In this document: positions 35,292-50,238 of the stretch, piece after piece | How positions within the stretch are numbered: position 1 is the first letter of the stretch | How the letters are laid out: the number at the start of each line of letters is the position of its first letter | Program-made: the position numbers and the translations under genes | Source: Aulosira sp. ZfuVER01 | GTDB lineage: Bacteria > Cyanobacteriota > Cyanobacteriia > Cyanobacteriales > Nostocaceae | Length of the DNA stretch: 64,000 nt | Assembly (NCBI GenBank): GCA_034530615.2 | Contig: JAVRCV020000041.1 | Coordinates: forward strand, 128,001-192,000 | Reading direction: 5' to 3' | Notes under the pieces: generated by a model | What the model was told of the DNA's origin: nothing | The model's input: only the letters and a program-made list of their open reading frames with translations | The model's database searches: none

Positions 35292-36671
35292 TTAGACAGA
35301 GTACTCTTTGATACGCGGCATTAGCCCGAATAAACTTAAAAGCGCGATCGCACTCACTGCAATTGAAGTTGTCATCTCAAAATTGTCTACATCGTGAAAG
35401 CCTTGCTGAATTGCCTTGTCGAAAGCTGCTTGGTTAATATCGAAACTCTTTTGATTAGTCGTTTTGAACTGCTCAAACGCCCAATCTGACTGTCCGGGTT
35501 TGTTACCTATGCATAAAGCGATCGCTTCTTGATGTTTGCCACTTTTCTCTAACTGACGAATTTGTTTATCGATATCAATATAGGTTCCCAAGCTGGAGAG
35601 ATTTGCCAGTGTCGCTTCTTTTTCACCTGCAAAAGTAATATTGTTGAGTTCCTCAGCCAAGTAACCTGTGAACCCATCTAGTTTGTTACCCTGAACTTTA
35701 TATGCTTCTGCTACTGACTTAAAGGTGTATCCATTAGGTAGTTGGGCAATTTGAGCTACATTTTGGAAAAAAGCTTGTTCGCGATCGCTAGCAAAAGCTG
35801 GGTCGAGCAAATAGCGACTTTTAGCAGCATTGGCAATATAGGCGATCGCCCTAGCTTGGCGTAATGCGTGCATAGAAGTAAAAGCATCTTCTTTCGCCAC
35901 TCGCAGATGTTGGGAAGCAGCAAGTAATGCCCCGACGGTGTAATTTAAAAAGCCAATAGCGATCGCGGTTGCTATCAACAACGCCGGATTAAAGGTGCGG
36001 CGCATCCGTTGGCTGAGAAATAGCTGAAGTCCAACCAGTACAAAGATCAGTGCAATACTGATTAGGAAAATGGAAAATATAGAGTTTCTCGTTGTAACTT
36101 GTTTGTGATTATAGGTATCTTCTAAAGCTTGCAGATTTACCTTGTCTAGTTCATCGGCTGCGGGTAGCAGTGTTTTATCCATGATTTCCGCAGCTGCGCG
36201 ATAAGCGACCAACATAGAATTAGTATCACTACGTGCGTGAGAGTCTCGTGCTTGCTGGATTTTGGTTAAGTAATTGCCTAACGCCAGTTGCATAGCCTCA
36301 ATCGGTTTGCGTTCTTTATCTCCAAAGGTGATATTTTCAGCAGCAGCCACCAGCCTTTCAGTAACTTTTGAATATCGCTCTTCATAACCCTGAACAGCAT
36401 CTTGGTTTTGCCCCGTTGGCACTAGCAATTCGTTAGCGAGATTAGCATCCATACCTGCAAGCCCATCTTTCAGGCGTTGAGCAGTAACGATACTTGGTGT
36501 TGAGTCTTGCCCAACAGTTTTGATGGCCTGTCTCTGGGATTGAACTCCGCTAATAATAGTAATTAAAAGTAAGACACTGGTTGCCCAGGTTAAATATAAA
36601 CCACCCTTGAGCAATTGCGGAGTCGTGAGTCCGCGAATAGCTTTGCTTGAGACTGTGATAATTTTACTCAT
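35292..36671 (-). CDS. GlnX-like 4-TM membrane protein with two large helical extracytoplasmic regions
   Basis: TM-loop-TM-TM-loop-TM topology; C-terminal GLMPRIKEY resembles actinobacterial GlnX as recalled; operon with the PknG-like kinase. Confidence 0.7.
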   Translation of the reverse strand: MSKIITVSSKAIRGLTTPQLLKGGLYLTWATSVLLLITIISGVQSQRQAIKTVGQDSTPSIVTAQRLKDGLAGMDANLANELLVPTGQNQDAVQGYEERYSKVTERLVAAAENITFGDKERKPIEAMQLALGNYLTKIQQARDSHARSDTNSMLVAYRAAAEIMDKTLLPAADELDKVNLQALEDTYNHKQVTTRNSIFSIFLISIALIFVLVGLQLFLSQRMRRTFNPALLIATAIAIGFLNYTVGALLAASQHLRVAKEDAFTSMHALRQARAIAYIANAAKSRYLLDPAFASDREQAFFQNVAQIAQLPNGYTFKSVAEAYKVQGNKLDGFTGYLAEELNNITFAGEKEATLANLSSLGTYIDIDKQIRQLEKSGKHQEAIALCIGNKPGQSDWAFEQFKTTNQKSFDINQAAFDKAIQQGFHDVDNFEMTTSIAVSAIALLSLFGLMPRIKEYSV

Positions 36672-36810
36672 TTGTCATTTGTCATTTGTCATTTGTTATT
36701 TGTCATTTGTCATTTGTCATTTGTTCTTCTTCCCCTCATCTCCTCCTTGTCTCCTTGTCCTCCTTGTCCCCCTTGTCTCCCCACACTTCCCACACTCCCC
36801 ACACTCCCAT
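36670..36810. repeat. STRR-type heptamer tract (ATTTGTC)n plus 9-mer tracts (TCCTTGTCY, TCCCCACAC)
   Basis: Directly visible tandem units filling the intergenic gap. Confidence 0.9.
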
Positions 36811-36817
36811 ATCTCTC

Positions 36818-37474
36818 TCATCGAATAGCTTCGATCGCAATCCTTGTCCAATGTCCTAAAGTAAATTCATCTCCATCTTGTAGAGGAATATCTACCATTG
36901 GCTTTAACTCCACGCCTTTAAATTGTGTGCCGTTGGAAGAGCCAATATCGCGCAGCGTGAATGTACCATCTGCTTGACGGTTTAATAAAGCATGGCGGTG
37001 AGATACAGCATCATCAAAATCTAGTGCAATTTCTGGGTCAATTGCCCGGACTTGGCTATTGCGACCGATCAGGTTAGTTGCCTTTTCTAAAGGAAATATC
37101 ATCGGTGCTCGATCGATTGGGGGTTCGGGGCTTTCGGGATGACGCAGAGATGGGTCGATTGTCACCACCAACTGCCAACCTATAGGGGGAGACGCGGAGA
37201 CAGAACTTTGTTTTTGTGTTACCTTCTCTTCTTGTTTTGGGGTTTTGGCGATCGCTAATTCGCCATGTGCCTTAGTAACAAAGTTGTAACCACAAATTTC
37301 ACAATAGACACCGCTATCGGTTTCGTGGGGCGCACTGCAATCTGGGCAGGTTTCAAAATTGGTTGTATTCTGAGCTATGGTTTGTTCAGATATACCGAGA
37401 ATTTTGGCTCCACAGTCCGAACAAAAATCTGATTCGGTTGATTCGTGTCCTTTAGGACATTTATATGTAGACAT
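36818..37474 (-). CDS. Zinc-ribbon + FHA domain protein
   Basis: CPKGH..CSDC and CPDC..CEIC; FHA motifs IGR, VSHRHA, SSNGT. Confidence 0.9.
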   Translation of the reverse strand: MSTYKCPKGHESTESDFCSDCGAKILGISEQTIAQNTTNFETCPDCSAPHETDSGVYCEICGYNFVTKAHGELAIAKTPKQEEKVTQKQSSVSASPPIGWQLVVTIDPSLRHPESPEPPIDRAPMIFPLEKATNLIGRNSQVRAIDPEIALDFDDAVSHRHALLNRQADGTFTLRDIGSSNGTQFKGVELKPMVDIPLQDGDEFTLGHWTRIAIEAIR

Positions 37475-37546
37475 AATTGCTTTGTTCTTTGTTGTTTGTC
37501 ATGTGTCTTTTGTTTTTACAAACCACCAATGACTAATGACAAATCA

Positions 37547-38830
37547 CTAATTTGGAGATTTAGGAATCCGAGTAGTTTTAGTAGAACGAGTTTCTAATGC
37601 CATTGCATCTTCCTTTGCTATTTCTCGTTTGAGCCGTACTGTACCTGTAGGCGCATCCTGAACATCAACCACAGTTTTAAGTAGTTTGGCTGTGGCTTCG
37701 TTACCAGATTCATGCGCTAATTTCACTGCTTTGCCCAATTTAGCAGTAGCCGCTTCAATATCACCCCTAGCACGGGCTTCTAATCCTTCTTGAATTGACT
37801 GAGCTAGTTCTGCTTGTCCTGTGTAGTGAGCAACCCGGTTATTAATTTTGGTAGATTTGGCGTCATCATCTGTCCAAGTTGCCAAAATCCGGGCTTCTGC
37901 AACTTTGGTTTCCGTACCGTTGAGAGCGTACACTAAGCTGGCTCGACCTGCTAACATTTCATCACCAACATTACCGGGATTGACTTCGATGCAGAAGTGG
38001 TAATCGCGGGACTCATTGCTACCCCAAGCACCAGTAGGGTAATCCAAAATCTGCGGTTTGACGGATTTAGCACGGTGGGTAAGGTCAACAATATCGGGAC
38101 TTACTTGTTTGCAGAAGAGTACTTTTGCTCCTTGGGGTGTCCACAAACGCAAGGTGACATCGCTGAGATCCTTACTCATGGCTTTTTCTAAAATTGCGCG
38201 AAAATCCACTTCAATCATCGCTGCATTGGGAATGATATCAGTTGTACCGAGGAGTTTGCCTGCAATTTGTTGGAGTTGGGCGACTCGCCAATCAGTACCA
38301 ACACCCCGGCAATCACACTGAAACACACCTTCACACTGCTGTAAAATCTTTTTCAGTGCTTGCTCATCGGAATCGTCGTTCATGCCATCAGTGAGCAGTA
38401 ATGCTTGTCTAACAGCGTCGGGTTTCTTTTTGAACTGTGCCAGCGCTTCAGTGAGCCAGGTAGACATGAGAGTGCCACCATTAGCCACGATTTTTTTAAT
38501 TGCGGCGATCGCCTGCTCTTTCTTTTCAGGTATAGCTTTAGATACGGGGAAAACTACGCTAGCCTTACTTGAGCCAGTCACAATAAAGAAGTAAGCATCC
38601 TCTGGTAGCAAACTCACAACTTTTTCCATTGCATCCTTAGCAGCGTGAATCTTACCACCACCCATTGAACCGGAGACATCACAGATAATCCCAAATAGTC
38701 TGCCGTTGTGGGGAGTGGCGGGTACTCCATCACCTTTTTCCACGCTGACAGTCATGATGGCATGAACTTCTTTGGCACCTTGGTGTAAATATTGGTTTTG
38801 GAAAACTTCGGCTTTAAATTGGTTAGACAT
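37547..38830 (-). CDS. VWA-domain protein
   Basis: MIDAS DVSGSM, GGT, LLTDG. ATG at 38830; the upstream ORF extension is repeat sequence. Confidence 0.9.
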   Translation of the reverse strand: MSNQFKAEVFQNQYLHQGAKEVHAIMTVSVEKGDGVPATPHNGRLFGIICDVSGSMGGGKIHAAKDAMEKVVSLLPEDAYFFIVTGSSKASVVFPVSKAIPEKKEQAIAAIKKIVANGGTLMSTWLTEALAQFKKKPDAVRQALLLTDGMNDDSDEQALKKILQQCEGVFQCDCRGVGTDWRVAQLQQIAGKLLGTTDIIPNAAMIEVDFRAILEKAMSKDLSDVTLRLWTPQGAKVLFCKQVSPDIVDLTHRAKSVKPQILDYPTGAWGSNESRDYHFCIEVNPGNVGDEMLAGRASLVYALNGTETKVAEARILATWTDDDAKSTKINNRVAHYTGQAELAQSIQEGLEARARGDIEAATAKLGKAVKLAHESGNEATAKLLKTVVDVQDAPTGTVRLKREIAKEDAMALETRSTKTTRIPKSPN

Positions 38831-38904
38831 ATTAGGGTATTGGGAATGGGGCATTGGGCATTGGGCATTGGATGAGGGAATAGTCCATCTGCCATCTGCC
38901 TTGT

Positions 38905-39864
38905 TCATAAAGCGAGAATTGCTACGGTAATGTTGTCATGTCCGCCGCTTTGGCGGGCAAACTCCACCAAGTTACGAGAGACACTAATTGCATCTTTACT
39001 GGATGATTGCTGGATTAATTTAGCCAACTGCCAAGGTTCAGGGGTATAGTTCCATAACCCATCAGTACACAAAAGCAGGTATCCTGAACCGGGAATCGTA
39101 AAGTTCACAATTGAGGGGATAGCATCTGCAACTGCATCTGCTCCTAACCAGCGAGTAATTGCATGAGCTTTGGGAGATTGTCTAGCTTCAGCTTCAGTCA
39201 TTTCTCCTGCTGCTACTACTTCATATAACCAGGAATCATCCTGAGTTAACTGTTGGGTAGCGTTGGCAGAAATCCAGTAAGCGCGGCTGTCACCCAGCCA
39301 ACCAATAGTAGCGGTATGATTATGTACAATAGCAGCAACAATAGTAGTTGATGGTGGATCGGAATTTACACTAGATACATAAGGAATTTTACATACAGAG
39401 TTGAGAGCAGCGACAAAGGCAGATTGAATCGCTAACTCTGGTTTCTCTTTTGTTTGCCAAACAGTCGCTAGTTCTAAAGATGCAGTTTCAGCAGCAGTGC
39501 GGGCTGCTAGATCGGGTTGCTCGGCACTGGAAACGCCATCACAAACTACGAGAATATTTACCTGAGAGTTATTGATCTGTTGGAGAGCGAAAAAATCTTC
39601 ATTGCGGTGATGTCGAAAACCGCGATCGCTCGCTCCTGCTAACTGTGAATTAATTATTACTTCTAGATAATCTCGCTCCTTGAGTTCTCTACGAAATCCG
39701 CAATTAGTACAGTAGCCTTCTATATCAATTGCTTCAATTCCTGCACCGCATTTTTCACAGCCTTGTGTAGCTGTTGGCGGTTTACTTGCGGTCAAAGGTG
39801 TACCGCATTCTTCACAAAAACGATCGCCTGCTAAGATAGATGCACCGCAACTCAAACATTGCAT
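38905..39864 (-). CDS. Zinc-ribbon + PP2C Ser/Thr phosphatase
   Basis: Four CxxC motifs; RNED, VCDGV, GDSRAY, CTDGL, GGHDNIT. Confidence 0.92.
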   Translation of the reverse strand: MQCLSCGASILAGDRFCEECGTPLTASKPPTATQGCEKCGAGIEAIDIEGYCTNCGFRRELKERDYLEVIINSQLAGASDRGFRHHRNEDFFALQQINNSQVNILVVCDGVSSAEQPDLAARTAAETASLELATVWQTKEKPELAIQSAFVAALNSVCKIPYVSSVNSDPPSTTIVAAIVHNHTATIGWLGDSRAYWISANATQQLTQDDSWLYEVVAAGEMTEAEARQSPKAHAITRWLGADAVADAIPSIVNFTIPGSGYLLLCTDGLWNYTPEPWQLAKLIQQSSSKDAISVSRNLVEFARQSGGHDNITVAILAL

Positions 39865-39883
39865 AAATATCTCCTCACCACAC

Positions 39884-42064
39884 TTAAATCAAAGTTCTCG
39901 GACGTATTCTATTTGCCTCATCAACTAAGTGAATTTTTTCTTTACCAGTTGCTAGATGGGCCATATCCCGCAAAGCTTTTTCTAGCCCTTTTCTCAGATG
40001 TACTTCTTGCAATGGTTGTCCTAGAATCTTCAAATTGTTAGCAGCTTGTAGTTGCTTGGAAGTTAGTAAATTCAAAGTTGTTTCTAATACTTGTTGAGTT
40101 AGCCGATGGCGATCCATACCTTCCAAGGTGAGTGTTTCAATGGCTGCGGAAGCTGTTTGCAATTCTTGGAAACTGGGAACAGAACGATCGCGGTTAATTA
40201 AAGTCCGGGCAATTTCGACTCGCGATCGCGTAAATAAACTAGAGGCTGGCGGTACACGTTCTAATGCTTCTACTGCACCTTTGCGATCGCCAGTTGCAGC
40301 TAGACAACGCGCTAAACCAAAGGCTGCTGTTACATAACTGAGATCGGTACGCGATACCAAATCGTACATTTTAACTGCTAGTTGATAATTTCGCGCCTGT
40401 TCTGCGGCTAACCCCAGCGCTAGTTTGGGTGCTAACTCTCCTGGTAAGTCAAAATAAACTTGATCGAAAGCTTTTTGAGCTTCTTCGGCTTTATTCTGCG
40501 CCATCAAAGCACGCCCTCGATACCAAAAAATTCGCCAGTCCCAAGGGTCTTTTTCTTCGACTTTTGCTAAAGATTGCTCTGCTTCTTCATAATCAAATGC
40601 ATCAATCAAGGTATTTGCTAATCGCAATAATGCTTCTCTAGAATTAGGAAATTGCTTAACGACTACATCTAAACTTACAGCTCGCTTGACTGGATCGGCG
40701 ATCGCACTGGCGTTAATCACTGCATTCAAAGCAGAATCGCTAGAATCTAATATTGGTAAAGGTAATTGTTGATATTCAGGTTTAATAGGTTCAAAGCTAC
40801 CACTATAAGTCATAGCCAACATATCTCCACCCAACAAATTGCTGGAAGCTGGACGAGGTACATTAGTTTCAACAGCGACAACTTCCCTCAACACACCCAA
40901 TAACTGATCTGCCATTTCATCGGCTGATTGAAACCGATCGTCGGGATTTTCCGCAGTTGCTTTAATTAGGAAGCGATAAAGAGATTCTTGGCCAGCAAAT
41001 AGCGGTTCTTCTTGAGGACTGGGTAATGTATAAAGATGTTCTTTACTAAAGCCTTTAATATCAGTTAGCAGTACTGCCAAAGTTCTCCCAACAGTAAATA
41101 AATCAGAAACGACTGTCGGGCCTTCACCTGCTTCTGGGGCACTATAACCTACTGTGCCGTAAATATCGCCATCTAAGTCGTCTATGCGGCGGACACCACC
41201 TAAGTCAATTAGTTTGACATCGCCGCCTTCGACCATAATATTGTCTGGTTTGAAGTCGCAATATACCATTCCTAAGGAATGCAAATAAGCAAATGCACTA
41301 AGAATACGGTGAATATAAGCGATCGCTTCTGGTACTGGTAAAGGCCCCCGACTTTTGCGAATTTCCCTGAGGGTTTTACCGCCGACATATTCCATGACAA
41401 TAAAACCCTCAGTACCGTGGTTGACAAAGTTGTAAATTCCCACGATATTGGCGTGTTTTACTGCTGCGAGGAACTGTCTTTCAGCCACAGCCACCGCCGC
41501 ACTAGCTGCATCTTCAGTATTCAGTAGTCCCTTTAAAACAACATAGCGAGATAGAGTTTTATCAAAGCCTAAATAAATCCAACCTAAACCACCATAAGCG
41601 ATCGCTCCTTTAACTTCGTATTGCCCGACAACCACATCACCAGGATTCAGACTCGGAATAAACGAATACTTCTGTCCGCACTTGCTACAAAATCCCTTTT
41701 CTCGCCGCAAAGGATTATTGCAATTACTACAAAAGCGCTTATTCTCCGGCACCATTGGGTTAGGAATAATCGCTTTTTCCGGCTCAGTTGAAGGTAATTC
41801 TGGTACAGAGATTAACCCTGCTCCCAATTGTCTGCGGCTACTACGAGCAGAAGTGCTACTAGTACGCCGCGAACCTTTGGAACGGTTGGTTAACGGTGAG
41901 GAACCCGTACCCGTAGTCACTGGAGAACTTCTAGCTGTAATAGTTGCGCTTTGCTTCTGGCTGCTGACATTTTGAGATTTCACCGCCGCCAACCCGCAGA
42001 CATTACAATAGCCATCTTCAATAATGCCAGTACATCCATTTCGCGTGCAGCGATCGCTGTTCAT
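39884..42064 (-). CDS. PknG-like Ser/Thr kinase (rubredoxin-like CxxC pair, kinase, TPR)
   Basis: CSNC..CSKC, QYEVKGAIAYGGLGWIYL, VVLKGLL, YCDFKPDN, IDLG, YGTVGYSAPE, PGELAPKLAL, C-terminal LVDEANRIRP. Confidence 0.88.
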   Translation of the reverse strand: MNSDRCTRNGCTGIIEDGYCNVCGLAAVKSQNVSSQKQSATITARSSPVTTGTGSSPLTNRSKGSRRTSSTSARSSRRQLGAGLISVPELPSTEPEKAIIPNPMVPENKRFCSNCNNPLRREKGFCSKCGQKYSFIPSLNPGDVVVGQYEVKGAIAYGGLGWIYLGFDKTLSRYVVLKGLLNTEDAASAAVAVAERQFLAAVKHANIVGIYNFVNHGTEGFIVMEYVGGKTLREIRKSRGPLPVPEAIAYIHRILSAFAYLHSLGMVYCDFKPDNIMVEGGDVKLIDLGGVRRIDDLDGDIYGTVGYSAPEAGEGPTVVSDLFTVGRTLAVLLTDIKGFSKEHLYTLPSPQEEPLFAGQESLYRFLIKATAENPDDRFQSADEMADQLLGVLREVVAVETNVPRPASSNLLGGDMLAMTYSGSFEPIKPEYQQLPLPILDSSDSALNAVINASAIADPVKRAVSLDVVVKQFPNSREALLRLANTLIDAFDYEEAEQSLAKVEEKDPWDWRIFWYRGRALMAQNKAEEAQKAFDQVYFDLPGELAPKLALGLAAEQARNYQLAVKMYDLVSRTDLSYVTAAFGLARCLAATGDRKGAVEALERVPPASSLFTRSRVEIARTLINRDRSVPSFQELQTASAAIETLTLEGMDRHRLTQQVLETTLNLLTSKQLQAANNLKILGQPLQEVHLRKGLEKALRDMAHLATGKEKIHLVDEANRIRPRTLI

Positions 42065-42130
42065 TTAAATCTCCTGATTGGTAATTGGGCATGGGGCATG
42101 GGGAAAGAGTCAAACTCGAAATTTTGGTTT

Positions 42131-42395
42131 CAAACGTGCAAGTTTCGGGTTCAAAGGCGCAACTTCGAGCATAAAAGGCGCAACTTCGAGGCTAAAAGGC
42201 TCAACTCTCAACCTCAAAGGCTCAACTCTCAACCTCAAAGGCTCAACCCTCAACCTCAAAGGCTCAACCCTCAACCTCAAAGGCTCAACTTTCAGCCTCA
42301 AAGGCTCAACTTTCAGCCTCAAAGGCTCAACCTTCAACCTCAAAGGCTCAACCTTCAGCCTCAAAGGCTCATCATCCAACCTCAAAGGCTCAACA
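42131..42395. repeat. 21-bp tandem array, consensus CAAAGGCTCAACYYTCARCCT, 12 full copies plus a partial
   Basis: Units in exact 21-bp register from 42131; the left three are degenerate; no spacers. Confidence 0.95.
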
Positions 42396-42491
42396 GCTAT
42401 CATAAATTCACCACCTTGTTTGTCAACCTTGTCACCCTCAACCCCCGGTTGGTGAGCGAAGTCGAACCACATCCCCACCATGCCCTATGCC

Positions 42492-43709
42492 CTATGCCCC
42501 ATGCCCCATACCATTCAAACGCTTTTCATATTGAGAGACTAATTCCGCGGCTTTATCTAAAGCAGTAGGGCGTGTATATAAAAGTTGCTTTGCTTGTTCG
42601 GCTAAATTGGAAAGTTTGGTATCTTCAATCAATCCTTTAGCTAATGCTTTGGCTTTGAGAGCATCCAAGCGTCCCCTTAACTCCCGACGACTCTCTAAAA
42701 GAGCGCTATTAGCAGTATATGCTCGTTGTTCTGATGCCATGTACTCTTTAGCTTTGTTTGTCCAATTGTCTAAACCGATTGTGACTGGATTGACTAAACC
42801 CTCCGCTAGCTTAGTTTCTAACCTTGTTAACCATTGACTGAGCGCATCTAATTCCACATCAGTCAATGGAGTCTGCTGTATTAAATAATCCACAATTTTT
42901 TCTTTGCTTTCCGCAAATGCAGCCAGAGAACTTGAGTGAAGTGTAGTTAATTGTTGTAACAAATCGTGAGCGATCGCAAATTTCTCTCGGATTTGGCGTT
43001 GCTGTTTCAGTGCTTGTTCGAGAACCAATTTCAGTTTTGCCAACATTGGCTGAATCTGTTGTTCAACCTCTGCACTCACCCCCAGAGGATCTTGTTCTAT
43101 CTGTTCGTGCAAAGATGAGATCGCCGCCTGACTTTGTACCAGTTCGCTTAGAGAATTCGGATCTAGGGATTCCGCTAAGTTTTGCAGTGAGTAGATTTGA
43201 GATTCTACATCCGCCAGTATGCGATCTAGATTAGCCCAAGCGACATCCACAGCTAAAACTGCATCTCTAGCCACAGAAAAAGCATGATTCATTACTTGCA
43301 ATAACTGTGCAGGTGCGATCGCATTTGCTATGTGAGTAGCAGTCAGTAGTTCTCTTTGTGCAAGCGGCGTTTGTACAGATGGTAGCTCAATTGAGGCTCC
43401 TGTTAGCAGTTGTTTTATCTCATCAATCTTTTGTTCGCTCACCAAAAAGCGTGGTAATTGCTGGCGCAACTTACTCGCCTTCTCCACTACCTCCACTAAT
43501 AAGTCGAAGTATTGAAACAAATCATTCATCGCCTCCAATGCAGGAGTTACTCGTGTCGCAGTAATTCCTTTCAAATCAACTTTAGGAAAGCCAGGGCTAC
43601 CACAAAGGCATTGATATGTTTGTAACTCTTGTAATTCCAAGAGATTTTGGCTGACAACTTTGATTTTATGTTTCCAGTCAGCTAAAAGTCGATCGATTTC
43701 ATCTGTCAC
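42492..43709 (-). CDS. All-helical coiled-coil protein, first gene of the kinase operon
   Basis: 405-aa ORF with GTG start and AGGAG upstream; RRELRGRLDALKAKA and C-terminal PTALDKAAELVSQYE. Confidence 0.8.
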   Translation of the reverse strand: MTDEIDRLLADWKHKIKVVSQNLLELQELQTYQCLCGSPGFPKVDLKGITATRVTPALEAMNDLFQYFDLLVEVVEKASKLRQQLPRFLVSEQKIDEIKQLLTGASIELPSVQTPLAQRELLTATHIANAIAPAQLLQVMNHAFSVARDAVLAVDVAWANLDRILADVESQIYSLQNLAESLDPNSLSELVQSQAAISSLHEQIEQDPLGVSAEVEQQIQPMLAKLKLVLEQALKQQRQIREKFAIAHDLLQQLTTLHSSSLAAFAESKEKIVDYLIQQTPLTDVELDALSQWLTRLETKLAEGLVNPVTIGLDNWTNKAKEYMASEQRAYTANSALLESRRELRGRLDALKAKALAKGLIEDTKLSNLAEQAKQLLYTRPTALDKAAELVSQYEKRLNGMGHGA

Positions 43710-43827
43710 AGCGCTGACTCCTGTATCAAAAAGGTGGTTGCGATAATGAGCGATCGCTCTCTACTAACCCAGCTATTATATGTATCTTTTTTTATAACAA
43801 CTCATACTTAATTAATCTTGAAGATTA

Positions 43828-43941
43828 CAACCAACAGCCACAGGTTATCAGCATATTCAAAAGTTCACTAGCGGTCAAACCTTATCAATTCAAGCCTTAC
43901 CCGACGTAACCATTAGCGTTACCGAAATCTTTGGTAGATAA
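43828..43941 (+). pseudogene. 3' remnant of a Uma2/DUF820 endonuclease-family gene
   Basis: Translates to QPTATGYQHIQKFTSGQTLSIQALPDVTISVTEIFGR*; in-frame TGA at 43819-43821 and no start codon. Confidence 0.6.
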
Positions 43942-44282
43942 ACCGAAACATTAGGCGATCGCTCCCTTTTATCTCTTAGTTGGTTTTCTCTGCATCCTTG
44001 GCGGTTAGATTCTTATCCCAACTTATTAAATACGTAGACATCACCTAGATATTTTGACTGATGAAAAGGCGCGACATTTTTCATCACAAGTCACTATAAA
44101 AGAATCAAAATGTTAAATTCAATACTGAAATTTTTTAAATAAATACATTATGGAGCGTGCAACTTATCTCAACAGCCTTAGTAGAATAAACCATTCACTT
44201 AAGGTTCGGGTTTGCTGACTTTGCTGCCATCAATAACTCGATAAATTGATTAATAAGTAAAGCGCGAGTTGAGATAAAAACT

Positions 44283-44784: not shown

Positions 44785-47178
44785 TTATCGCTTGTTGGAA
44801 GGCTGCCAACCGCGACGCTCAAGCATTTGCCGCACCTCTGGGCTGGGATTATAGTTATAGCCATAGGAAGAACGCTCTGAGTCATCCATAATTTGAGGTG
44901 TGAGCATTACAATTACCTCTCTGCGTTCATTGCTTCTGTTGGTTTTTCTAAACAGCGAACCAATTAAAGGAATATCGCCTAAGATGGGAATTTTTGAAAC
45001 AGTTGTCCGGTCTTGGTCTTGAATAATACCTGAGAGAATTAGTGTCTGACCATCTCGCAAACGAATCATCCCCGAAGTCAGAGAGCGTTCAGACACTAAA
45101 ATGATTTGTCCATTTCCTGTATTTTCCGCGGCTGTAGGTGCGCTGACAGTCGGAGCAACCGATAGAGAAACAAAACCATTATCATCAATCCGGTCAATTT
45201 TCACATTCAGGGTTAAGCCAACTTTTTGCTTTTCTATTTGCCTCTCAGTTCTAGAGCCACCAGAAGTATCCGTTGTTTGAATAGTTATGTTTCCTACTAC
45301 TTCCTGAGTCAAGTTAACAAGAGCTTGCTGCCCTTCTTGCACAATTAAAGTTGGGTCAGTCAAAATCTTGGCGTTGCCATTTGTTACCTGAGCCTGCAAA
45401 CTTGCAAGTAACCGTTTGGGGAATTGGTATAGAGATGGCAAGCTGTATGTGTATTTAGCAGGAGTCTGACCAGTTATCTGATTACTATATGCTGTTGGTT
45501 GACCAGTAACAGGATCAAACTGAGTTGGTACAGATGTAACTGTTCCTGGAGTTCCTTCTGTATATGCTGTCAGGCCTGGTTGTAGTGGATTAGAAGTTGC
45601 GCCAGCACTAGGTACTCCTAAATTTGGATTTTGTGGATTGAGAAAAATATTTGAGCTTTGAAGCGGATTCTGAGTAGTAGGTGTCTGAGTTACACTACTT
45701 GCCACTTCAGAAGCAGTAGCTGGTCTAGAACCACCAAAATTCAGAGATGCTGCACCACCATCATTGGAAAAGAAGTTGTTCCCCACTCCAAAAGAAAAAC
45801 TGGTGTTGTAATCGTGGGTTCCTGTAAGATTCACATCAACAATTTTGACGTTAACTACCACTTGACGACGGCGGATATCAAGCTGAGTCAGTTGAGCCAT
45901 CGCAATATCAATTAGCCTAGGAGAACCAATCAAGGTAACGGAATTAGTGCGCTCATCGCCTAATGCCTGTAAACCTCTCAGTAATGGATTAGAGTCTTTA
46001 AAATCAACCCGTTGAGTTTCTAATTTAGTTTCTGTGGTGGTTTGAGTTTGGGTAACTGCGGCGGCTGAATTACCCACAGGTACAGCACTAACACTAGTAA
46101 CCAGCCGTTCACGGCTAATGGCACTTTCTGCTCCCAAACCTACTAAAAAGTTAAGGGCGACTCCCACTGTTACTTGATTCAGCCGTAGGCTACGCATTAC
46201 CGTGTCACGGGTGGAAGTAGGTAGTTTCGATCCCACAAAAACGGTGCGACCGCTACGATTCGCTTCTAAACCGCTCAAGCGCAAGACGTAATTAAACACA
46301 TCTTGTACTGGTTCGTTTTCTATATCTAGGGAGATTGTTTGAGAGATTGCTTGTCCATTAGCAGCAGTACCACCTCCTGCGCCCTCTCCTCCCACATAAG
46401 CCAAGTTAAGACCAGCCGCACGAGCTAGTAGTGACAAAACCTCGCGCACTGGCGCATCTCGCAGCACTAACCGAGGAACACGTTCCTGAGTTGCTAGATC
46501 AATGGTGCTAGGAGACGCATCAGTATTAGAGATAGCAATATCCCCTACTGGTGGGGCGACAGCTCTAGGTAAGAAAGGTGGTCCCTGATTTGGCGGTTGA
46601 CCTGGGCCAGCTGGTAGTGCAGGCTTCCCGTCAATCGTGACTTCTGGGTTGGGGACGAGAACATCTGGTTTTGTACCAGGTTGCGATGGGGTCGGAGTAG
46701 ATGGGGTTGTTGCTATGGGTGTTGTTGGTATGGGTGTGGGTGCTGTCGGTGTTGGTGTTGATGCTGTACTACCTGTGGATGGGCTAAAGCCGAGAGTAAT
46801 GCCATTTTGCTGACGCATCACAGGTTGATTGCTAGGGGCATTATTGCTTCCAGTTACCACCACCCGGATGCTATTGGCATCAAGCTGAAGAATTTCAACT
46901 GAGGCAATTCCTGAAGTGGGGTTGTCTTTGCGGAAATTATTGCCTTGTGGTAAACGTAGTTGAGTATTAATAATATCTGTAACTAAAGTGTTGCCCCTTT
47001 TGGTCGTGAAAACTTGGGGGCGCGAACCTGAAGACGTTTTCAAAACAACATTAATTCCACCATTAACCGTATTTAGCTGTACGTCAGTAATTTGGGTAGT
47101 GTTTGCCCAAACTGGTTGAGCTGCCAAAAAGACGAAAGCGGCGGTACCTAATAATAAATTACCGTGAAGCTGTTTCAC
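44785..47178 (-). CDS. pilQ: Type IV pilus secretin with N-terminal AMIN domain
   Basis: Signal peptide; secretin motifs LRDGQTLILSGII, KIPILGDIPLIGSLFR; downstream of pilMNO. Confidence 0.92.
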   Translation of the reverse strand: MKQLHGNLLLGTAAFVFLAAQPVWANTTQITDVQLNTVNGGINVVLKTSSGSRPQVFTTKRGNTLVTDIINTQLRLPQGNNFRKDNPTSGIASVEILQLDANSIRVVVTGSNNAPSNQPVMRQQNGITLGFSPSTGSTASTPTPTAPTPIPTTPIATTPSTPTPSQPGTKPDVLVPNPEVTIDGKPALPAGPGQPPNQGPPFLPRAVAPPVGDIAISNTDASPSTIDLATQERVPRLVLRDAPVREVLSLLARAAGLNLAYVGGEGAGGGTAANGQAISQTISLDIENEPVQDVFNYVLRLSGLEANRSGRTVFVGSKLPTSTRDTVMRSLRLNQVTVGVALNFLVGLGAESAISRERLVTSVSAVPVGNSAAAVTQTQTTTETKLETQRVDFKDSNPLLRGLQALGDERTNSVTLIGSPRLIDIAMAQLTQLDIRRRQVVVNVKIVDVNLTGTHDYNTSFSFGVGNNFFSNDGGAASLNFGGSRPATASEVASSVTQTPTTQNPLQSSNIFLNPQNPNLGVPSAGATSNPLQPGLTAYTEGTPGTVTSVPTQFDPVTGQPTAYSNQITGQTPAKYTYSLPSLYQFPKRLLASLQAQVTNGNAKILTDPTLIVQEGQQALVNLTQEVVGNITIQTTDTSGGSRTERQIEKQKVGLTLNVKIDRIDDNGFVSLSVAPTVSAPTAAENTGNGQIILVSERSLTSGMIRLRDGQTLILSGIIQDQDRTTVSKIPILGDIPLIGSLFRKTNRSNERREVIVMLTPQIMDDSERSSYGYNYNPSPEVRQMLERRGWQPSNKR

Positions 47179-47417
47179 AGTTCATTCCTCACCTGATAAA
47201 ATCTTGTTGACAAATAATTTTTGAGTAGATATGTTGCCACATACTAGATGAGCAACTTTGTATGCCTAGAACTCAATTGCTAGGGCTAGTAACTGAAGTC
47301 TACTCAGGTAGACTCTGAAGAGAACTTTCGCTATGCAGCCCTGTATTGGCAACCGCTGATGGTTGTTATAACTGGTGCAAGATGTATTGATAATTGTTCT
47401 TCTGTTACTACTCAGAA

Positions 47418-47589
47418 ACGCCACTTGCTACCCTGCGGGAAGGTGCTACTCTACCCTACTCTTCGAGAACGCCTGACGGCGAACGAGAACGACTTCGTCG
47501 AACGCTTCTACAACAGGGACAACCCCAAAGAACAGTTTGCTCAAGTCAGCGGAGCCGCCCACGAAACTGTCCTCCACAATGCAGTGGCT
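47418..47589 (+). repeat. Nested cluster of small dispersed repeats
   Basis: Outer ends ACGCCACTTGC...GCAGTGGCT enclose GAGAACGCCTGACGGCGAAC, GAGAACGACTTCGTCGAAC and CAGTTTGCTCAAGTC..CCGCCCACGAAACTG. Confidence 0.7.
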
Positions 47590-47607
47590 TCTCAGCAATA
47601 TTTGCTG

Positions 47608-48366
47608 TTATTTCTTAGGAGCAGGGTTAGCAGCAGCTATTTCTTCTGGACTAAGTGGCATTAATGCCTGTATTTGGAAAATTGTATTAATTGATGCAGG
47701 CCCAATCTTCCGGACTTTTTTGTCTGATGATGGGTCAACCGGTACTCTAGCTAATGTCGATTGATAATCTTTAACTATCAACAAAGGCTGTAAACGCTCA
47801 ATGTTACGAAGAATTGATTGCGTTTGTTCATAAGTACCCACAATTTCAATATTGATACTGCTGCGTTTTAGCTTGCCATCGACCAGTTTTCCCAGACTGC
47901 CATCATTAATCGCTTCTGATTTACTTGAAGCTGGCACAAACTTTTTCAGTGCTCCTCTCACTAAATTGGCAGGAATTTGAGCATTACTAGTTTCAATCAA
48001 GCGATTCAGATCCAGTAGCAAGGTATCCAAGGTTTTTTCATTAGAAAATAAACTTAAAACCTGTACTTGTTGAACTTTTGCCTGTTCTAGCTCGGCTTTG
48101 ACCTGATCGATCTTTTTGATGCTAGCTTTCTTTTGATCGACTTGTCCTTGCAGTTCGCTAATTTTTGCTTGCTTTTGTTGATAGGTATCCCAAGCTGGCA
48201 TTAACAGATTTAGAACTATATAAACGCCTCCAGCCAGACCTATGACCCCTACCAAAATCCCAATGATTTTGGGTGTAAAGCTAATCCCAAACACTACAGG
48301 GTAGGCAGGAGATTCGCCAAATTCCCCACTGTGTTCTGAAAAGTTTAAATCATCACTCAGCGTCAT
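47608..48366 (-). CDS. pilO: Type IV pilus assembly protein PilO
   Basis: Single TM + coiled coil, TLLLDLNR, NIERLQPLL; position in the pilMNOQ operon. Confidence 0.85.
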   Translation of the reverse strand: MTLSDDLNFSEHSGEFGESPAYPVVFGISFTPKIIGILVGVIGLAGGVYIVLNLLMPAWDTYQQKQAKISELQGQVDQKKASIKKIDQVKAELEQAKVQQVQVLSLFSNEKTLDTLLLDLNRLIETSNAQIPANLVRGALKKFVPASSKSEAINDGSLGKLVDGKLKRSSINIEIVGTYEQTQSILRNIERLQPLLIVKDYQSTLARVPVDPSSDKKVRKIGPASINTIFQIQALMPLSPEEIAAANPAPKK

Positions 48367-49127
48367 TTTGAAATGACTCCTGTTTGTTGCAAACTACGAA
48401 TTCGAGTCACTAGTCCCACAGTACCTTTTTGCTCTAGCTCCCGGATTAATTCAGAAGCTGGAACATCACTTAAACTTGATTGAATAGTGTATTTGACTAT
48501 TTGAATTGGCGGAGTTTTGTCATCATTTTTCGCAGCACCTTCTGGTAATGGTGCATTAACCAACTCTGCTGTAATAATTTTGCTTTCTGACGACTTTAAA
48601 AATCGAGACTGTTGCAGAGTGAGCAAAAAATCATTGACATCGTTAAAAGAGCGAGCCAATCCAGTAATTTCTATTCCGCCAGCTGGATTTCCTGGTGGTT
48701 GCCCTGGGGCAGGAGCAACAGGTGGGATTTGCTTGACAGTTTCAATTTGCACTTTGGCAGGTATGCGATCGCGCAAATCTTGCAACATCGCTGACCACGG
48801 ACGAATCTGGTCAAACACTGTAACTAAAGCTTGTGTTTCCCCTTTGATTTTGTTGGTCTGTTCTTTAATTTTGTTAATATTTCCGATTTCTGTGTCTAAC
48901 CTCTTGTTTTCCTGATCTAGTTGTGCTACTTTTTGCTCTAATTCAACATTTTTGGCTTCCAACAACCACCAAGCGCCGCCCGCGACTGCCGGGAAGCATA
49001 TACCAATGGCTACTCCCAAGTACATTGGTGTTAAGTTCCCAACAGGAAGTTTGATGCCTCCTTGTTTGCTAGACTTTTTCTGAAAACTTGGACGGTCCTT
49101 AAGAAAGTTAATATCCAGACTGTACAT
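48363..49127 (-). CDS. pilN: Type IV pilus assembly protein PilN
   Basis: N-terminal INFL motif, TM, coiled coil, PWSAMLQDL. Confidence 0.9.
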   Translation of the reverse strand: MYSLDINFLKDRPSFQKKSSKQGGIKLPVGNLTPMYLGVAIGICFPAVAGGAWWLLEAKNVELEQKVAQLDQENKRLDTEIGNINKIKEQTNKIKGETQALVTVFDQIRPWSAMLQDLRDRIPAKVQIETVKQIPPVAPAPGQPPGNPAGGIEITGLARSFNDVNDFLLTLQQSRFLKSSESKIITAELVNAPLPEGAAKNDDKTPPIQIVKYTIQSSLSDVPASELIRELEQKGTVGLVTRIRSLQQTGVISK

Positions 49128-49131
49128 TCTG

Positions 49132-50238
49132 TTACACCTCCCTCATTCCTAAACCCAGTACTGTCGCTAAACCAGAGCGTTGTACTACAGGGTATTTATC
49201 TTCGCTAACTTCTAAGGACAAAGATGCTATGGGATCAATTTGGGCAGTGGGCAAGCTCAATCGTTGCGTGAAGAACTCATCTAGCTGTTGCAGTCCACCT
49301 CCTGGACCAGCTAGGAAAATTTGCGCTACCTCCAAGTTTTCACTCTGATTGAGATAAAAATCGATGGAACGACGCAGTTCATCAGTGAGTTCTCCCAATA
49401 CCCTTAATAGGGCTGCCATACCCGGATTAATTTCGGTAATCCCAGTTTTCCCCCCGTCTACAGGAGTGGTCATAATCGTCATTCCCTGCAACAATTCCAT
49501 ATCCCGTGATGCCGGTAAACTCATGGCTTTCGACAGGGCTTGTTGCATTTGATAAGTGCCTATTGGCACGGTGCGCGAAAATTGTGGTATTCCGTTAACA
49601 ATGATGGCAATTTCTGAACTGTCAAACTCTATATCCACAAGTACTGCTGCTTCTTGTGGCCCGAATTGTCGCAGTTGATCGCGAATTGTCCGAATCAGCG
49701 CAAAACTGTTAATCTCTAAAACATCGATTTGCAATCCTGCTTGCTCAAATGTACTGATATATGCGTCTGTCACCTCCTTACGTGTAGCCACTAAGAGTAC
49801 TTGTACTTTTTCAATGCCATCCTCATCTACAAAGTACCCAAGTTTTTGATAATCTACATCAGCTTCTTCACGAGGATAGGGTAAATACAAAGCTGCTTCA
49901 TGGTTTAGTACCATCTCCCGCAGTTCTTTATCATCTAACTCTGCTGGTACAGGTATTAAACGTACAATTGAATCTCGTCCTGGTACAGCAGTAGCAACCC
50001 GAGAAGCTTTAATTTTACTCTCAGCTAGCGCCTGCTGAATTAATTGCGCCATTGCTGGAGGGTCGGTGATTTGACCATCGGTAACTAGTCCTTCGGGAAC
50101 TGCTACTGATGTTAAGGCTTCTATTTTAAAGCCTTGACGCTGTTTGCGTAGTTGAACTATACTCACCCGTTCTGGCGCTAGTTCAATACCGACTCCTTTA
50201 TTAGATTTGCCAAACAGACTATTGAAGCTTTTCACCAC
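49132..50238 (-). CDS. pilM: Type IV pilus assembly protein PilM
   Basis: Actin-like: VGIEL, ELRRSIDFY, FLAGPGG, LGLGMREV. Confidence 0.93.
   Translation of the reverse strand: MVKSFNSLFGKSNKGVGIELAPERVSIVQLRKQRQGFKIEALTSVAVPEGLVTDGQITDPPAMAQLIQQALAESKIKASRVATAVPGRDSIVRLIPVPAELDDKELREMVLNHEAALYLPYPREEADVDYQKLGYFVDEDGIEKVQVLLVATRKEVTDAYISTFEQAGLQIDVLEINSFALIRTIRDQLRQFGPQEAAVLVDIEFDSSEIAIIVNGIPQFSRTVPIGTYQMQQALSKAMSLPASRDMELLQGMTIMTTPVDGGKTGITEINPGMAALLRVLGELTDELRRSIDFYLNQSENLEVAQIFLAGPGGGLQQLDEFFTQRLSLPTAQIDPIASLSLEVSEDKYPVVQRSGLATVLGLGMREV

Follow-up and report, generated by a model that had tools for sequence, protein, structure and literature searches.

What can a PknG-type protein kinase sense, and what can it control, in a cyanobacterium that has neither the linked sensor nor the target enzyme of the textbook pathway? 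The question is raised by six genes at positions 35292..43709 of a 64,000-nucleotide stretch of the genome of Aulosira sp. ZfuVER01 (the window). All six are intact open reading frames (ORFs) on the minus strand, in the order helical protein, kinase, PP2C phosphatase, vWA protein, FHA protein and membrane protein. A first-pass annotation had read them as a self-contained, actinobacterial-type phosphosignalling operon. Judged by its sequence, the six-gene set falls outside the GlnH-GlnX-PknG-GarA pathway and resembles PknG signalling joined to a switch of the ArnA/ArnB type. With no linked GlnH, no OdhA and no GarA/OdhI, both the input and the output differ from those of the textbook pathway.

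Gene content of the locus

The six genes, in their order on the minus strand, are as follows.

42492..43709, minus strand: helical protein of 405 amino acids with a GTG start; no Pfam or NCBIfam family, an EzrA/spectrin-like rod by fold, on its model a likely scaffold.
39884..42064, minus strand: PknG-family Ser/Thr kinase of 726 amino acids (PknG_rubred, Pkinase, PknG_TPR), laid out as a Cys4 ribbon (residues 6-23), a Thr/Ser-rich linker (T51, T53), a rubredoxin domain (112-129), a kinase domain (149-342) and a TPR domain (432-724).
38905..39864, minus strand: PP2C phosphatase of 319 amino acids with an N-terminal double Zn ribbon, by Pfam and NCBIfam domains.
37547..38830, minus strand: protein of 427 amino acids with vWA, beta-sandwich and helical-bundle parts (VWA and VWA_3_C), an intact MIDAS (metal-ion-dependent adhesion site) and the threonine tail LETRSTKTTR.
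36818..37474, minus strand: double Zn-ribbon and FHA protein of 218 amino acids with an intact phosphothreonine (pThr) pocket, no ETTS motif and an ArnA-like architecture.
35292..36671, minus strand: GlnX-family receptor (NF058618) of 459 amino acids with four transmembrane (TM) segments and two predicted periplasmic four-helix bundles.

The co-orientation, the intact frames and the domains agreed with the first-pass annotation. Its Zn-ribbon phosphatase, vWA protein with MIDAS, Zn-ribbon FHA protein and four-TM protein were all borne out by domain searches, residue conservation and hydropathy, the last giving four TM segments for the GlnX-family protein and none for the other five. Two descriptions had to be adjusted: the kinase has the TPR tail, but its CxxC pair proved to be two Cys ribbons, and the "coiled-coil" protein is helical, but its model is a chain of helical bundles and not a coiled coil. 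All six genes are single-copy in the 8.03 Mb genome, whose other kinases and phosphatases match the cassette enzymes at 24-33% and over the catalytic domain only. The spacers between the genes reach about 430 bp, the vWA gene has an alternative in-frame ATG at 38908 that overlaps the PP2C stop, and scanning for promoters and terminators gave chance-level counts (19 vs 17.4 and 7 vs 8.8, respectively).

Identity of the kinase

The kinase matched the PknG_rubred profile (PF16919) with 69.8 bits against a cut-off of 28.5 (E 2e-19) and the PknG_TPR profile (PF16918) with 225 bits (E 1e-66), so both PknG-specific domains are present; it has no TM segment. Mycobacterial PknG (2PZI) was matched over residues 78-724 with an E-value of 6e-140, compared with about 1e-23 for PknB. 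In a quick kinase-domain tree of 48 rows, with the actinobacterial sampling thin (three named rows and high-GC loci), the 38 PknG rows, three of them actinobacterial, split from ten other kinases of the genome with an SH-aLRT (Shimodaira-Hasegawa-like approximate likelihood ratio test) support of 99, and the kinase did not group with the Pkn2 type. The catalytic residues K178, E195, D270, K272, N275 and D287 are each found in 66/66 orthologues, as are the rubredoxin cysteines C112, C126 and C129, with C115 in 65/66; T51 and T53 of the linker are conserved in 62/66 and 61/66. On these grounds we consider the kinase a true PknG and not a cyanobacterial Pkn2.

The locus had been put forward as not known to be characterised in cyanobacteria. 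This held for the operon, for which no describing paper was found in the literature (coverage of subscription papers was limited), and failed for the kinase. A PknG homologue with rubredoxin is mentioned for Ktedonobacter and Calothrix sp. in PMC8546545, so cyanobacterial PknG as such is not new. All parts of the set are known domains, and the cyanobacterial PknG homologue is already in print.

A GlnX-type receptor without a linked GlnH

The membrane protein scored 294.7 bits with the GlnX-family model NF058618 (cut-off 250) and 42 of 780, below the cut-off, with the strict equivalog NF041460. It aligned over its full length by hhalign to GlnX of the canonical Tsukamurella glnX-glnH-pknG operon with a probability of 99.3. 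Its model (predicted local distance difference test, pLDDT, 96.6) shows long helices continuous with the four TM segments, and GlnX is described with such helices running into four TM segments in PMC9769921; the four-helix-bundle assignment derives from the homology to GlnX together with that description. Foldseek with the receptor model returned no match at E<=0.001, and the two halves of the receptor showed no significant similarity to each other by BLAST (E 0.34). PknG is proposed to bind GlnX through its TPR domain (PMC6069109). R225 of the cytoplasmic loop and the tail R453-x-x-E456-Y457 are common to canonical GlnX, with R225, R453 and E456 unchanged across 16 diverse GlnH-less GlnX rows and every one of the 12 GlnH-linked rows. 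GlnX-family domains are also fused to an N-terminal Ser/Thr kinase (P0334, P0355) or a vWA domain (P0306) in three of the seven long matches scanned.

No glnH was found in the window. For the comparison with other genomes, a query with the vWA protein gave 77 genome loci, extended to 83. A binding-protein profile was positive in three of the 83 (Nonomuraea, Tsukamurella and one unrelated divergent gene); the last of these (L065) was rejected as a GlnH, its gene lying upstream and in divergent orientation. The 63 loci with 1.5 kb of sequence past glnX held a binding-protein gene in Nonomuraea alone, and none was found in the 62 of them that are non-actinobacterial, while the positive controls (L099, L101) were matched. 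Among the 47 of 79 metagenome loci that are at least 4 kb long, 11 with high GC (0.70-0.72) have a binding protein before the kinase, and 16 with lower GC have glnX after the FHA gene and no binding protein, several of them ending early. In the kinase tree, a branch with a support of 100 has the 28 GlnH-less kinases on one side (seven unlabelled rows left out).

The receptors differ along the same line. A periplasmic motif of the N-I-T-F type, present in both bundles, occurs in 68/73 GlnH-less receptors compared with 0/12 GlnH-linked ones, and this pattern would fit a new input.

Two further loci bear on how PknG may be fed. The deepest branch of the GlnH-less clade is L104, from a host of the same phylum and another class (G128, GC 0.30), with the rearranged order vWA-FHA-GlnX-helical-PknG-PP2C and without GlnH; this host keeps OdhA. 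On a Nocardia plasmid (L100, 5703-11100), a PknG homologue lies directly behind an amino-acid permease and near an NAD-glutamate dehydrogenase, without glnX or glnH, which is another alternative input.

Absence of the textbook targets

The OdhA model (TIGR00239) gave no match in the 99.99% complete genome, with the controls ringing in 7/14, and the best OdhI score was 45 bits against a cut-off of 200, with nothing in the genome above it. The ETTS motif was absent from the nine other FHA proteins of the genome and from all 76 orthologues of the operon FHA protein, which also have no conserved threonine before the FHA domain. The FHA linker is unconserved, unlike the vWA tail threonines (76 vs 79 orthologues).

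These results bear directly on a reading by which the FHA protein itself would be the kinase substrate and control unlinked carbon or nitrogen enzymes, after the logic of GarA, with an unlinked amino-acid-binding protein feeding the receptor. PknG recruits FHA substrates through its autophosphorylated N-terminus (PMC8546545), and T51 and T53 are well conserved here; seven SBP_bac_3 genes lie elsewhere in the genome, and knocking out glnH has a milder effect than knocking out glnX (bioRxiv 10.64898/2026.07.02.735984). The missing ETTS motif and threonine and the lack of OdhA and OdhI speak against it. In addition, the best substrate-binding protein of the genome matches GlnH with an E-value of 4e-10 and 24% identity, compared with 35% for the Nonomuraea GlnH, and the vWA gene is left unexplained. 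We therefore regard this reading as unlikely.

Compared with the GlnH-GlnX-PknG-GarA/OdhI-OdhA system of Mycobacterium and Corynebacterium (PMC6069109, PMC9769921, PMC8546545), the cassette shares the PknG architecture with an intact active site and Thr-rich N-terminus, an FHA partner, and a homologue of GlnX over its full length, in which the four TM segments and the cytoplasmic loop and tail recur. It differs in having no linked glnH, no GarA/OdhI and no OdhA, in the added PP2C, vWA, Zn-ribbon FHA and helical genes, in the extra Cys ribbon of the kinase, and in the clade-specific periplasmic motif of the receptor. As the kinase and the transducer are strongly conserved in a host without the linked sensor or the target enzyme, the pathway must draw on a different input and lead to a different output.

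The vWA and FHA proteins and the ArnA/ArnB pair

A candidate for that output is encoded within the set. Over its full length, the vWA protein is homologous to Catenulispora 4FX5 (E 5e-106), which shares the three-part fold (vWA, beta-sandwich, helical bundle) of an ArnB paralogue (PMC6509490). Its MIDAS is invariant, and the tail threonines T414, T417 and T419 are conserved in 75, 76 and 78 of 79 orthologues. The FHA protein has its pThr pocket (G137, R138, S158, H161, N181, G182) and all ribbon ligands in 76/76 orthologues, and of 47 PDB matches of the FHA profile only the ArnA chains 8S05_C and 5A8I were matched across both the ribbon and the FHA domain. The FHA gene lies beside or near the VWA gene in 74/77 genome loci. 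The PP2C residues D90, D109, D192, D268 and D310 are each present in 73/73 orthologues. The kinase, the phosphatase and the FHA reader all bear related Cys ribbons, which suggests a shared docking on the vWA protein as a hub.

In Sulfolobus, the Zn finger of ArnA holds ArnB loosely, and its FHA domain binds tightly once the ArnB tail is phosphorylated (PMC12852372). The likeness to ArnA/ArnB with ArnC and PP2A (PMC6509490, PMC12852372) lies in the Zn-finger and FHA reader, in the three-part vWA protein with C-terminal threonines, and in the presence of kinase and phosphatase partners. By contrast, the cyanobacterial reader has two ribbons instead of one, PknG and PP2C take the places of ArnC and PP2A, and the set is one predicted operon with a membrane receptor. 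Moreover, the sequence similarity is distant, and binding within the cyanobacterial pair is a prediction.

Proposed circuit

We propose, with a probability of roughly 0.5, that the receptor activates PknG, that PknG phosphorylates the vWA tail, that the FHA protein clamps the phosphorylated tail and that PP2C resets the switch, with the helical protein as an EzrA-like scaffold. With no GlnH linked to it, the GlnX-type receptor would sense a cue in the periplasm and pass it to the kinase TPR domain through its cytoplasmic loop (R225) and tail (R453-x-x-E456-Y457). The kinase linker would be autophosphorylated at T51/T53 and recruit the FHA protein, as published for PknG. Phosphorylation of T414/T417/T419 of the vWA protein would then convert a loose contact by the Zn ribbon into tight FHA-pThr binding, on the model of ArnA/ArnB; PP2C may reset this switch, and the helical rod may act as the scaffold. 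What the switch serves is a guess from analogy: a starvation or surface cue might set a developmental or motility state.

Several observations weigh against this proposal. The similarity of the FHA protein to ArnA is weak (E 3e-5), with other FHA proteins scoring higher, and that of the vWA protein to ArnB is limited to the vWA domain (E 9e-13). The two cassettes farthest removed, L099 and L104, have a different vWA tail. The GlnH-less kinases are one clade, so the periplasmic motif and the loss of GlnH count as a single event, and one of the seven unlinked SBP_bac_3 proteins of the genome, 22-27% identical to GlnH, could act in trans. The acidobacterial and G128 hosts tested retain OdhA, and the cassette holds no DNA-binding or other evident effector domain.

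A more far-reaching version is tentative at best. By it, GlnX of the cyanobacterial and acidobacterial clade would bind its ligand directly through the duplicated motif, the vWA protein would be a ribbon-docking hub, and the whole would be a membrane-triggered bacterial counterpart of the ArnA/ArnB starvation switch of archaea for development or motility in filamentous cyanobacteria, with the GarA/OdhA control as a derived output of PknG. The locus offers a harmless, natural system for asking if GlnX-type receptors sense ligands directly, a way to study their contact with the TPR domain of PknG, and a test case for a bacterial equivalent of the archaeal ArnA/ArnB switch.

The helical protein and a structural output

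EzrA is a protein with an N-terminal membrane anchor. The helical protein, modeled with a pLDDT of 87, has two EzrA rods as its best VIA fold matches, 4uy3 (Z 12.8, root-mean-square deviation 3.9, 185 aligned residues, 9% identity) and 4uxv (Z 11.5), and EzrA clusters were also met in the ESM Atlas (TM score 0.54). Foldseek gave nothing at E<=0.001 (E 1.7). The score is compatible with a generic helical bundle, the identity is low, and hydropathy revealed no TM anchor, which sets the protein apart from EzrA; on the model, a scaffold role is likely.

The fold invites the alternative that the rod joins the vWA protein in a membrane-associated assembly, at the septum, the envelope or a gliding apparatus, which phosphorylation builds or dissolves. 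Besides the EzrA matches, the mostly filamentous named host genera and the position of the helical gene, which adjoins the kinase even in the rearranged L071 and L072, agree with it. However, a Z of 12.8 is no more than common helical arrangements can give, and the membrane anchor is missing; the helical gene is on the other strand in L062, L063 and L069 and absent in L030, and close congeners live without the cassette. Type IV pilus genes of the pilMNOPQ kind, named from their translations, lie 1 kb upstream (44785-50238), but this pilus operon adjoins the cassette in only 3/77 loci. We hold such a structural output to be improbable. The pilus operon was rejected as a motility link as well, the linkage being within this genus.

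Distribution and comparison with other operons

The gene set is kept together in other genomes, in agreement with the first-pass annotation: all six genes are found in 59/83 loci, 54 of which have the order of the window. Over the 77 loci, the FHA gene is present in 74, PP2C and GlnX in 71 each, PknG in 64 and the helical gene in 62, many of the misses being contig ends. The hosts belong to Nostocales, Oscillatoriales, Leptolyngbyaceae and Pseudanabaenaceae, as well as to Acidobacteria, in which the cassette genes abut or overlap. A third homologue search added almost solely Streptosporangiaceae vWA proteins. A comparison of 442 nearby ORFs from the 77 loci revealed no conserved seventh gene; the largest cluster (15 loci) consists of generic sensor kinases on either side. 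The occurrence is patchy, with 6/14 congeners, 12/41 relatives, 44/201 family genomes and 7/401 genomes of a phylum sample (five candidates scored per genome) and 2/201 genomes from the phylum to which the acidobacterial G431 belongs, all counts including the centre genome. Some loci show internal deletions, a split kinase or an absent helical gene or PP2C (L098, L021/L030, L103, L011/L058), some of which may be assembly errors.

In Nonomuraea gerenzanensis (L099), all six genes stand in the order of the window, with glnH coming next. The wider actinobacterial gene set, mentioned for Streptomyces in the first-pass annotation, was thus seen in Nonomuraea. The seven-gene cassette of Nonomuraea and the high-GC metagenome loci contains all six genes, in identical order in Nonomuraea, and differs in the GlnH beside GlnX and in kinases that lie across a well-supported branch; no paper describing it was found in the literature. 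The label "actinobacterial-type" needs refining, since the nearest relatives are in Acidobacteria and not in Actinobacteria.

The operon DRA0331-0334 of Deinococcus radiodurans (bioRxiv 10.64898/2026.01.23.701218) likewise joins vWA, Ser/Thr kinase, FHA and PP2C, with kinase-phosphatase antagonism in Deinococcus. Its kinase, with TM helices at the C-terminus, is not of the PknG type, its phosphatase carries a KI-FHA domain, and no GlnX or helical gene is described for it.

The TerY-P triad consists of vWA, PP2C and kinase genes, and the cassette could be a comparable anti-phage or conflict module under a membrane sensor, an option that the first-pass annotation had left among its functions. 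Predicted conflict systems include such kinase-PP2C-vWA triads (PMC7159879), and the set is self-contained, patchy and repeatedly lost or decayed. Against this, no nuclease or toxin domain is present, and four of the six proteins have no PADLOC match. The vWA protein is unmatched, PP2C has one weak PDC match, and the kinase matches span the kinase domain only, with no TerY-P name among the best 25 of 33. Of the flanking proteins, 8/96 match PADLOC at 1e-10, several of them generic (no control set). The conservation among cyanobacteria is high (median 82% for the kinase and 79% for vWA), and the tree is largely host-like. The lack of an effector, the high conservation and the few defence matches in the flanks disfavour defence, and the conflict option, with little to support it, appears a poor prospect.

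Residence and loss of the cassette

Two further features of the window belong to the history of the locus.

42151..42394, no strand: 21-bp tandem array (11.6 copies) in the spacer that separates the helical gene from the kinase gene, with 7-bp short tandemly repeated repetitive (STRR) tracts on both sides.
35357..44040, no strand: block deleted in congener G003, where a relic of the glnX 3' end remains.

The sequence comparisons support a long residence of the cassette, as had been suggested, in preference to a recent transfer. In a FastTree phylogeny from a concatenation of four proteins, the 50 rows of the cyanobacterial type form one clade (100) with Nostocales and Pseudanabaenaceae subclades; a few rows with odd labels (Acetobacteraceae, a Leptolyngbyaceae bin) nest within Nostocaceae and may be misbinned or transferred. 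Cassette GC tracks that of the flanks (r 0.92 for 47 cyanobacterial loci). Sites of the highly iterated palindrome 1 (HIP1) are dense, with 16 in 8418 bp (1.9/kb) compared with 0.96/kb genome-wide and 1.06/kb in long ORFs on eight contigs. About 0.8% of 912 equal genome bins reach 16 sites, and 44/47 cyanobacterial cassettes have at least three. STRR tracts sit in the cassette spacers. A recent transfer from Actinobacteria was rejected, the kinase and vWA proteins being 38-43% identical to those of Nonomuraea and 57-68% to those of Acidobacteria, with the GC following the flanks; given the thin actinobacterial sampling, neither donor nor direction is claimed.

In G003, a PAS histidine kinase gene is joined to DUF760 with the glnX relic between them, and the flanking genes are 88-94% identical to those of the window. 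More distant congeners keep the cassette at the same site, so that the patchiness there reflects loss. The clean deletion makes G003 a ready natural comparison. One may ask whether the Aulosira copy is itself a silent or decaying relic, as the deletion in G003, the split or partial copies in G016, G073 and L098 and the loss of PP2C in G015 could suggest. The six intact frames with invariant active sites, and the 59 loci that keep all six genes, make this very improbable.

Additional observations

At the G003 junction (C1 near 8184900; L108 1850-1960), the last glnX codons are kept and two HIP1 sites lie within about 50 bp, and a role of HIP1 is possible. Over the 47 cyanobacterial loci, HIP1 density is 1.80 per kb in cassette genes and 0.88 in flanks, which exceeds what residence alone needs. 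A second double-Zn-ribbon FHA protein, presumably FraH, is encoded outside the window at contig 41 76597-77622, some 10 kb away from genes for a PP2C and a further FHA protein, and is a possible cross-talk partner. Arrays of the 21-bp type number six in the genome, and similar ones occupy different spacers of the same operon in L013, L015, L022 and L024, which suggests a mobile or expanding intergenic repeat. At 42110-42481, the array opens heptad-repeat frames on both strands.

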